A stretch of 11,292 nucleotides of DNA, from the IMG/VR virus record IMGVR_UViG_2548876860_000007; one strand, written 5' to 3'. Numbering within the stretch: position 1 is the first letter of the stretch; every line of letters begins with the position of its first letter. Positions 5,548-6,325 of this stretch are shown here, piece by piece. The position numbers were made by a program, and so were the translations under genes. Source of the stretch: a virus (lineage: Duplodnaviria > Heunggongvirae > Uroviricota > Caudoviricetes). A model generated the notes under the pieces. It was not told the origin of the DNA. It did no database searches and saw only the letters and a program-made list of their open reading frames with translations.

Positions 5548-6111
5548 ATGACTGAATTAACCAAAGAATGGCTACAGTACACGATTACCGGAATTGAGTC
5601 ATCACGGGATGAAATACCGTTCGGACTCGATGAAGATCAAAACAACATGCTTACCGCATTAAAAATTGCACTGGCATCACTGGCATCAGTATCGGATGAA
5701 CGGGCAGCCTATGAATTATTTATGGAGAAGCGTTTCGGGGAATCTGTAGATCGCCGCAGAGCAAAAAATGGCGATAGAGAATACATGGCATGGGATATGG
5801 CGCTTGGCTGGATTATCTGGTGTCACCGCGCCGCCATGCTTCAGGCTGGAAACTTTCGGGAAAATAAGGGTTCGTCAACCAATAATTTTCGGATAATCTC
5901 GGAAACGTCAACCAACTCTCCGGCAATCCCTGATGAGGTGTTGTCCGCAATCCTGAAGGTCGCCAGGCTTCGTGCAGATTTCGATGCTTCTGAAGTGGAC
6001 AGGCGAGGTATCGGTAGTTGTCTGGATGAGGCCGAGCAAGAACTTATCGTTACCATTAACGAATACGCCAGTCAGATCGCAGTAGAAGCGACACAGGGGG
6101 AGAACCAATGA
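5548..6111 (+). CDS. Hypothetical protein (187 aa)
   Basis: ORF preceded by a 126-bp AT-rich spacer and a GAAA-loop hairpin (5522-5539). Its stop overlaps the next small ORF (ATGA at 6108-6111). Confidence 0.6.
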   Translation: MTELTKEWLQYTITGIESSRDEIPFGLDEDQNNMLTALKIALASLASVSDERAAYELFMEKRFGESVDRRRAKNGDREYMAWDMALGWIIWCHRAAMLQAGNFRENKGSSTNNFRIISETSTNSPAIPDEVLSAILKVARLRADFDASEVDRRGIGSCLDEAEQELIVTINEYASQIAVEATQGENQ

Positions 6112-6185
6112 GCCGGCCAGATGCATTTGCAGGCGTTGCTATAGCTATTGCTTTTCTAGTATATGTTATTTGTCGGTGGGGGTAA
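6108..6185 (+). CDS. Small hydrophobic peptide (25 aa), single predicted TM helix
   Basis: Hand-translated MSRPDAFAGVAIAIAFLVYVICRWG. GGGGGAG SD (6096-6102) 5 nt upstream; start overlaps the upstream stop. Below the ORF-track cutoff. Confidence 0.35.
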   Translation: MSRPDAFAGVAIAIAFLVYVICRWG

Positions 6186-6220
6186 AAACGTTCGCCGGGA
6201 TTCACACCAAGGGAGGGAAT

Positions 6221-6325
6221 ATGTCGGATGATATTTCACTGGTAATGGAAGGCGCTCTGGCTGTTATTGCTGTTGTGGGTGTTTACTGCCTGGTTGTGTT
6301 TTTGATGGAGCGCCTGGGGAACTGA
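6221..6325 (+). CDS. Small hydrophobic peptide (34 aa), single predicted TM helix
   Basis: Hand-translated MSDDISLVMEGALAVIAVVGVYCLVVFLMERLGN. Strong SD GGGAGGG (6211-6217) 3 nt before the ATG. Confidence 0.4.
   Translation: MSDDISLVMEGALAVIAVVGVYCLVVFLMERLGN

Follow-up and report, generated by a model that had tools for sequence, protein, structure and literature searches.

Two short open reading frames (ORFs) lying directly upstream of a hok/sok locus in an Escherichia coli prophage are probably separate and genuine genes for single-pass inner-membrane microproteins of the early-right operon, accessory in role and not RNA-controlled toxins. They are found in IMG/VR virus record IMGVR_UViG_2548876860_000007 (Caudoviricetes), a DNA of 11,292 nucleotides which was analyzed as a whole, is called the window below, and corresponds to the early-right region of a lambdoid (Rac/Qin-like) prophage. 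ORF1 encodes a 25-aa single-helix peptide (MSRPDAFAGVAIAIAFLVYVICRWG; 6108-6185, + strand) and ORF2 a 34-aa single-helix peptide (MSDDISLVMEGALAVIAVVGVYCLVVFLMERLGN; 6221-6325, + strand). An original prediction, made from the letters of the sequence, had described both as genuine small membrane proteins with strong ribosome-binding sites and had suggested that they might be additional toxin-like or regulatory peptides clustered with the Hok toxin. Both ORFs exist with exactly the translations that it quoted, and their status as genuine small membrane proteins was borne out by frames, starts and Shine-Dalgarno (SD) sequences kept in diverged copies, by a frame-specific synonymous bias and by ribosome profiling (RIBOseq) of a near-identical ORF2 (PMC5597208); the toxin-like part found no support. 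Thirty-seven ORFs of at least 20 aa overlap the 1.9-kb stretch around ORF1 and ORF2; ORF size by itself is not above chance, so the case for the two genes rests on conservation.

ORF1 begins with an ATG located 5 nt downstream of the SD GGGGGAG (6096-6102, + strand), which lies within the last codons of a 187-aa gene (5548-6111, + strand). As originally described, the ATG at 6108 overlaps the TGA stop of this gene (6109-6111) to form ATGA (6108-6111). With its start on the stop and its SD inside the upstream gene, ORF1 forms a stop-start overlapping gene pair with it. The peptide has one hydrophobic stretch of membrane-helix length, the best 17-aa Kyte-Doolittle window being 2.66. It is a deviant member of a 27-aa family of the form M-x-W-P-E-A-F...C-R-W-G, from which it differs by W3R, E5D and the loss of two residues; it is still intact, and this allele is the common one in O26 and O157 strains. 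Among its close relatives (31 variants) the frame is kept, with 25 or 27 aa according to an in-frame 6-nt indel. A 12-nt direct repeat is shared by the ORF1 start (6110-6121) and the inside of hok (6672-6683), where the sequences read GAGCCGGCCAGA and GAACCGGCCAGA; it is probably due to chance.

The overlap with an upstream gene is seen in nearly the whole family. A stop-start overlap with an upstream ORF of at least 60 codons was found for 198 of 207 family starts (183 ATGA and 15 TGATG), and an SD-like 4-mer is present at positions -15 to -4 in 202 of these 207 members. The upstream genes, of at least four unrelated kinds, differ at their 3' ends and include a DUF551 gene (last residues ...PEPPQEVNQ), an Ea22-region gene (...RNGLISVEDVLR), a gene ending in ...NDLKNIEQEVNR, the 187-aa gene of the window and one gene of phage Av-05. 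Among close relatives, homology behind three unrelated upstream genes starts at the SD and ATG. Because the upstream 3' ends are unrelated, it seems to be the ORF1 module that provides whichever gene precedes it with its last codons and stop.

The ORF1 family is broadly distributed. When the 27-aa form was used in tblastn, full-length matches were obtained in about 99 phage records, among them 933W, VT1-Sakai, VT2-Sakai, BP-4795, Min27, ArgO145 and Shigella POCJ13, and also the virulent Vequintavirinae phage Av-05 with its relatives and TH18. By the same method 180 plasmid records matched, mostly non-mobilizable 90-105 kb replicons of E. coli and Salmonella, the single plasmid inspected being a Salmonella IncY P1-like phage-plasmid, and many E. 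coli prophages were found to carry a member. Matches in Klebsiella phages (E = 4-7) were too weak to count, and E. coli and S. flexneri were the only species representatives matched by the strict pattern. A pattern scan of IMG/VR recovered 67 distinct DNA and 42 distinct protein sequences, with the consensus M-[TNSI]-W-P-[ED]-A-F-x3-G-[IV]-A-[MI]-A-[VI]-A-[LF]-x-V-Y-x-[IV]-C-R-W-G. Since the sampling pattern fixed codons 1-7 and 26-27, the ratio of nonsynonymous to synonymous divergence (dN/dS, NG86) was taken on the unfixed codons 8-25; it was 0.29 in frame versus 0.76 and 1.85 in the other frames. In comparisons of different clades, dN was about 0.2 for a dS of 0.5 to 3. The comparison of synonymous and nonsynonymous change across related prophages that had been proposed as a check thus came out in favor of coding for ORF1, as it did for ORF2 (0.18-0.22, see below), with higher values out of frame in both cases. 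Conserved frame, start and stop, together with a frame-specific synonymous excess, as in a small protein-coding gene, were found for the two ORFs.

The 27-aa ORF was unannotated in all the records inspected, namely 933W, Stx2 II, Stx2a_WGPS2, VT1-Sakai, ArgO145, Av-05 and the Salmonella IncY P1-like phage-plasmid. In all the annotated records that were opened, 4 nt (or 1 nt) of the peptide ORF belong to the upstream coding sequence; in 933W the peptide ORF occupies 1201-1281 of the locus record examined. ORF1 and several family variants had no match in Pfam, NCBIfam, PHROG or PADLOC. Sporadic GenBank entries do list the peptide, as 'hypothetical' or 'bacteriophage protein'. A cluster at 90% identity that joined the 27-aa peptide with 121-aa DUF551 proteins was set aside as an artefact, those proteins being devoid of the peptide. 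The ORF1 family is thus a widespread conserved phage microprotein missing from the reference annotations inspected and from Pfam, NCBIfam and PHROG, and a concrete correction would be to add the 27-aa gene to reference phage annotations. The original prediction had held that both peptides were missed by the ORF track because of its length cut-off. ORF1 is not called by RefSeq in the prophage of O26:H11 strain 11368, which is 100% identical, whereas ORF2 is already annotated there as WP_001278460.1.

ORF2 starts at the ATG at 6221, 3-4 nt downstream of the SD GGGAGGG (6211-6217, + strand), so that the two strong SD sequences of the original prediction were both confirmed. This ATG is internal to a 51-aa ORF opened by TTG (6170-6325). 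Like ORF1, ORF2 has one hydrophobic stretch of membrane-helix length (best 17-aa Kyte-Doolittle window 2.95), and each peptide fits the single transmembrane helix that had been assigned to it. In all the E. coli genomes inspected, the NCBI annotation pipeline (PGAP) calls ORF2, under WP_001278460.1 or a close variant, as a hypothetical protein of 34 aa. Of 5,426 complete E. coli genomes, 732 contain its DNA, the median number of copies in a genome being 3, and 122 of the 126 copies sampled from IMG/VR prophage contigs and genomes are intact. Pairwise dN/dS (NG86) was 0.18 overall, versus 6.1 for the alternative open frame, and 0.22 for codons 17-33, which were unconstrained by the search pattern. 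The segregating changes comprise 13 synonymous and 12 nonsynonymous ones, the latter conservative (I/V, A/V, F/L, D/E), and variants with ATG>GTG at the start or TGA>TAA at the stop leave the ORF open. A diverged copy from a gut metagenome (MSDDILLAMEGALAVVAVMAIYCLVVFLIDRRGS) has kept the SD and start AAGGAGGGAATATG while the remaining spacer has changed.

Protein relatives of ORF2 were sought with the 51-aa TTG-extended frame and with DNA patterns. A 29-aa relative with a GTG start (MLVLKCALAIAAVMAIYCLVIVLMDHLSD), about 47% identical and preceded by the SD AGGAGG or GGGAGG, occurs in phage Tritos and some prophages. Clustering at 90% identity divides the family into 24 groups, almost all of E. 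coli origin, and a profile search retrieved 12 proteins among 1.84 billion cluster representatives. Among 50,697 deposited phage genomes the cassette is all but missing, the four weak protein-level matches being to the 29-aa relative; DNA searches of phage records matched the hok part alone. Searches by tblastn of the K-12 Qin and Rac prophages gave no named homologue, and no match to ORF2 was found in Pfam, NCBIfam, PHROG or PADLOC. The ORF2 family is therefore very narrow and Escherichia-restricted.

Translation of ORF2 is documented in the literature. Its homologue in E. coli O157:H7 Sakai, XECs145, belongs to the same family, lies in the same prophage context and differs by 2 aa (V8A, E30D); the RefSeq identifiers of the family are WP_001278460.1/WP_001278450.1. 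In lysogeny broth (LB), XECs145 showed a transcriptome RPKM (reads per kilobase per million mapped reads) of 79.1 and a translatome RPKM of 346.1, a ribosomal coverage value (RCV) of 4.35 and a coverage of 0.99; in brain heart infusion (BHI) the corresponding values were 121.3, 150.1, 1.14 and 0.84 (PMC5597208). It was nearly silent under cold and osmotic stress, was assigned by prediction to the inner membrane with a single transmembrane helix, and received the classifier class 'real' (Hücker et al. 2017, PLoS One, PMC5597208). The published model is of 54 aa and overlaps the end of ORF1; it begins at an ATG further upstream, for which no SD was found (PMC5597208). The 34-aa form is favored over it because the SD and start of this form are conserved, and PGAP too calls the 34-aa form. 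Both peptides are absent from the supplements of an Enterobacteriaceae microproteome preprint and of an EDL933 translatomics paper (PMC4765031, PMC11188072), and a full-text literature search with peptide-start strings gave no match. ORF2 is thus already known as a hypothetical gene with published translation evidence. A tiny inserted cassette translated in a pathogen, it is a tractable candidate for a membrane function expressed in lysogens.

The insertion itself can be read from the junctions. In 933W and pPE4, the ORF1 stop (TAA) runs straight into AAACGGTTTGCGG, which is the hok promoter region, while in the window about 170 bp, containing the ORF2 SD, ORF2 and a palindrome, separate ORF1 from that promoter. 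The segment is bracketed by a short repeat: according to the alignment, its left copy, GGGTAAAAACG (6180-6190, + strand), spans the ORF1 stop and marks the left edge, and its right copy (6354-6364, + strand) marks the right edge. The latter reads GGGCAAAACGG in the window, where it is imperfect, and GGGTAAAAACGG in most relatives, where it is perfect. As this repeat-bracketed segment is missing in 933W and pPE4, ORF2 is taken as a small cassette inserted between ORF1 and hok. The single repeat copy that joins the ORF1 stop to the hok promoter in these two replicons suggests, from sequence comparison, either an insertion or illegitimate recombination at the junction.

The palindrome, centered on GAATTC (an EcoRI site), occupies 6333-6355 between the ORF2 stop and the hok promoter. 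It contains a perfect 16-mer in the window (TATGGGAATTCCCATA, 6336-6351) and is a perfect 22-mer in most relatives (CGATATGGGAATTCCCATATCG); no shuffled sequence matched it. It is not followed by a T-run, and variant copies show single changes, none of them compensatory. It could serve for protein binding or be left over from the insertion of the cassette. The idea that it folds back to hide the ORF2 SD was discarded, the sequences not being complementary in register. The promoter scan gave no sigma-70 match upstream of ORF2, and no evident terminator was seen. A weak promoter has been predicted 173 bp upstream of XECs145 (LDF 2.13, PMC5597208). Of the features of a phage moron, ORF2 shows a repeat-flanked insertion; expression in lysogens is taken from the literature (PMC5597208), and a promoter of its own is putative, being a weak prediction.

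Taken together, these results are best accommodated by two independent small genes. ORF1 would travel as a module made of its own SD, ATG and ORF, supplying the last codons and the stop of the gene upstream (Ea22-like, DUF551, EaA or the 187-aa gene). Because the module ends the upstream gene at its own start, ORF1 is most likely made by termination-reinitiation coupling, its translation resuming once the upstream gene terminates. The ORF2 cassette would have been inserted at the short repeated junction between the ORF1 stop and the hok promoter; it would initiate independently at its own strong SD and be translated in uninduced lysogens. From their acidic N-termini and the Arg after the helix, both peptides are predicted to insert N-out/C-in. 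Their role may be that of accessory microproteins of the membrane, which could modulate a host membrane protein or exclude other phages, for instance, and their position beside hok would reflect the history of the modules and not a common mechanism.

A more specific proposal, which must be regarded as speculative and rather improbable, makes ORF1 the obligate stop-start 'tail gene' of the Ea22/DUF551/EaA class, with one peptide per upstream protein, tethering or relaying lysis-lysogeny or host-takeover proteins to the inner membrane, and ORF2 a lysogen-expressed peptide that conditions the cell for Hok or excludes phages. Early proteins of the Ea22-like, DUF551 and EaA types influence the lysis-lysogeny decision in Shiga toxin (Stx) phages, and the stop-start link to their genes provides an entry point to these poorly understood proteins.

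Several observations weigh against the interpretation as two accessory microprotein genes. When the closest relatives of ORF1 are taken alone, they show little synonymous excess (about 0.9 by hand count), and the coding signal comes from the family at large, for which the sampling pattern fixed codons 1-7 and 26-27. The window ORF1 is without the conserved W3 and two residues, so that this copy could be decaying, and the ORF is broken in a small number of family members (one TAG, one frameshift, one W>stop two codons early). The Sakai study was limited to ORFs of at least 30 aa, a cut-off below which ORF1 falls (PMC5597208), and the O157 RIBOseq reads could be multi-mapped among the 3-6 copies per genome. 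Finally, ORF2 and its 29-aa relative stand directly before hok in most contexts, which leaves a low probability for a functional tie to hok.

An unlikely alternative is that one or both ORFs encode type I toxins, that is Hok-like depolarising killers silenced by an antisense RNA or by mRNA structure and forming a multi-toxin cluster with hok. ORF1 and ORF2 do share with such toxins the character of small hydrophobic membrane peptides (25 and 34 aa), they are very hydrophobic, with a single helix, and they lie beside a bona fide hok/sok locus, ORF2-type peptides mostly standing just in front of hok. Their overproduction may be toxic, as it is for many hydrophobic peptides. A promoter-like match antisense to the 3' half of ORF1 (TTTACC-17-TATACT, 6186 to 6158, - strand) could also be invoked, but promoter-like matches are at chance level (3 versus 2.2 expected) and its -10 is lost in 933W-type relatives (by inspection). 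No match to Hok/Gef (PF01848) was obtained for either peptide with hmmscan at E <= 1, NCBIfam and PHROGs were also negative, and sok (6400-6574) was the only Rfam RNA found in the window; an antisense RNA with a conserved promoter was thus not detected by Rfam and the promoter scan, a novel RNA being beyond such sequence scans. Neither was an mRNA sequestering the ribosome-binding site with repressed translation found, and the 316 nt from 6085 to 6400 fold no better than shuffles (z = -0.02). Type I toxins are tightly silenced in translation, and the stop-start coupling to ordinary early genes that ORF1 shows in 198 of 207 cases is just the reverse; the ORF1 family occurs also in virulent phages, and the ORF2 homologue, with its RCV of 4.35, was among the more efficiently translated small ORFs in healthy LB cultures (PMC5597208). 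On these grounds the suggestion of further toxin-like or regulatory peptides clustered with Hok was not upheld, and nothing points to any further toxin, a second or a third, at the hok locus.

The hok locus bears on a second and still less probable alternative, according to which ORF2, possibly with ORF1, is tied to hok, either by modulating Hok or because transcription and translation across ORF2 tune the hok promoter 40 nt downstream. This putative promoter was identified by eye (TTGCTG-16 nt-TAGAAT, 6366-6393, + strand) and was not called by the consensus scanner; transcription would start near 6400. Within the promoter block, GAGTTAAGTAGAAT is invariant in all hok-linked relatives. It is followed by the hok mRNA leader and sok antisense region (6400-6574, + strand; Rfam RF01794, 114.9 bits, E = 3.7e-26), by mok (70 aa, 6512-6724), whose frame also holds hok as a nested gene (51 aa, 6569-6724; + strand; Pfam HOK_GEF, E = 3e-23, 81.6 bits; RefSeq hokD), and by a terminator-like hairpin with a T-run that closes the hok transcript (6793-6820, + strand). 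The end of ORF2 is 75 nt from the start of the Rfam sok/hok-leader match and 244 nt from the hok ATG (6569). A tie to hok is in line with the fact that the 34-aa ORF2, the 29-aa relative and the diverged metagenomic copy all stand immediately before the hok promoter, that hok is present at 86 of the 97 ORF2-bearing loci sampled, and that, in 933W and pPE4, ORF1 itself directly adjoins the hok -35 region.

The distribution of the three genes argues otherwise. Contexts were counted at 187 ORF1 loci with sufficient flanks, a biased sample as one scan had targeted ORF2: ORF1, ORF2 and hok occur together at 84 loci, ORF1 and ORF2 without hok at 11 (9 distinct contexts), ORF1 and hok without ORF2 at 34, ORF1 alone at 56, and ORF1 with the 29-aa ORF2 relative and hok at 2. 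ORF2 is intact in the 9 distinct contexts in which hok is replaced by an IbrB-like/PAPS-reductase module; at the loci inspected (E. coli STEC2018-607, O170:H18; about 1750-3284 of the locus records), the replacement by this reverse-strand pair begins within the promoter. As for ORF1, 48 distinct contexts contain it without hok, virulent phages and P1-like phage-plasmids among them, and hok is missing from about half of the ORF1 contexts without ORF2. Conversely, neither peptide is present at the hok loci inspected in K-12 Qin and at some IMG/VR loci. Adjacency to hok is thus frequent but not obligatory for ORF1 or ORF2, and the shared ancestry of neighboring modules explains it.

It is highly improbable that ORF1 is a frameshifted C-terminal membrane anchor of the upstream gene, or that ORF1 and ORF2 are made as a 74-aa two-helix fusion through a -1 slip on GGGGG. 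In its favor, no stop interrupts the ORF2 frame anywhere along ORF1, the database proteins P0005 and P0008 are exact 74-aa ORF1-ORF2 fusions of the kind that a one-base change in GGGGG would give, and some fragments at contig edges that include the peptide bear the label 'DUF551 domain-containing protein, partial'. However, ORF1 keeps its ATG and SD whichever of at least four unrelated genes precedes it, and the strong SD and the start of ORF2 are its own and are conserved, the start also as the ATG>GTG variant. The G-run is not conserved (TGAGGG, TGTGGG and TGGGAG variants; TGGAGA in 933W) and no canonical slippery heptamer is present. The fusions are rare (2 and 5 member sequences) and compatible with homopolymer sequencing errors; they are probably such errors or rare mutants.

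That the ORFs are chance frames in DNA conserved for other reasons, such as a recombination boundary or hok regulatory DNA, is hardly credible and already largely refuted: short ORFs are abundant by chance, nucleotide diversity among close relatives is similar in ORFs and spacers and the segment lies at mosaic junctions, but the synonymous bias is frame-specific for both ORFs, the ORF1 indel is in frame, substitutions in start and stop codons leave these functional, the SD persists in a spacer that has otherwise diverged, and ribosome footprints cover the ORF2 homologue (PMC5597208).

Other candidate identities were discarded. A holin, antiholin or spanin was set aside, the ORFs being located upstream of Q (8586-8945), between the replication genes and hok, with no lysis PHROG match. 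Homology of ORF1, ORF2 and Hok to each other comes down to a shared membrane-helix composition, and family matches to KdpF, PTR2 and DUF883_C were sub-threshold and compositional.

The region from 5548 to 6360 is shared at 100% identity with a prophage of O26:H11 strain 11368 and with many genomes of Shiga toxin-producing E. coli (STEC), O157 and O26 among them. The 187-aa gene matches PHROGs 14306 and 660, has no Pfam match and is the RefSeq hypothetical protein WP_000137957.1. Further upstream are found a repressor-like ORF (604-1023, - strand), YdaS/Cro-like (1124-1405) and YdaT (1389-1814) genes, a gene for a replication initiator-like helix-turn-helix protein (1822-2799), a DnaC/IstB-like ATPase gene (2816-3547), a DUF1627 gene (3573-4328) and several small hypothetical genes (4350-5421). 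Downstream of hok lie DUF968 (7172-8221), RusA (8234-8605), the antiterminator Q and two tRNAs (10739-10811 and 10895-10968). The RusA and Q ORFs share 20 nt, and both tRNA genes are beyond Q. A 135-aa ORF with a GTG start (6763-7170) is probably over-extended at its start; RefSeq has just a 92-aa protein corresponding to 6892-7170, and the PHROG 1212 match covers residues 70-135.

Among known systems, the closest counterpart is XECs145 itself, published as 54 aa where ORF2 is described here as 34 aa. Hok/Gef toxins resemble ORF1 and ORF2 in being small hydrophobic single-helix peptides of prophages and plasmids and are physically adjacent to them; they differ in that no sequence similarity exists, HOK_GEF matching 6512-6724 only, and the overlapping leader ORF, antisense RNA and fold-back mRNA of Hok/Sok were not found for ORF1 or ORF2 by Rfam and folding. 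In the ea region of Stx phages (Ea22: PMC10834534), the ORF1 family is placed at the end of Ea22-like, DUF551 or EaA early-operon genes. Compared with lambdoid morons, ORF2 is likewise a small inserted cassette expressed in lysogens, though without an evident terminator. The full-text search with peptide-start strings showed neither peptide described in the moron, exo-xis or ea-region literature. AcrZ, MgtS, KdpF and CydX are single-pass membrane microproteins of E. coli (25-50 aa) that modulate larger membrane proteins; such microproteins are often missed by annotation and some overlap a neighboring operon gene. ORF1 and ORF2 are like them in size, in their one helix and in their few conserved flanking residues, with no detectable homology (the best score was obtained with KdpF, 14.7 bits for a cut-off of 26.85). 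Unlike them, ORF1 and ORF2 are phage-borne, and the partner gene upstream of ORF1 varies.

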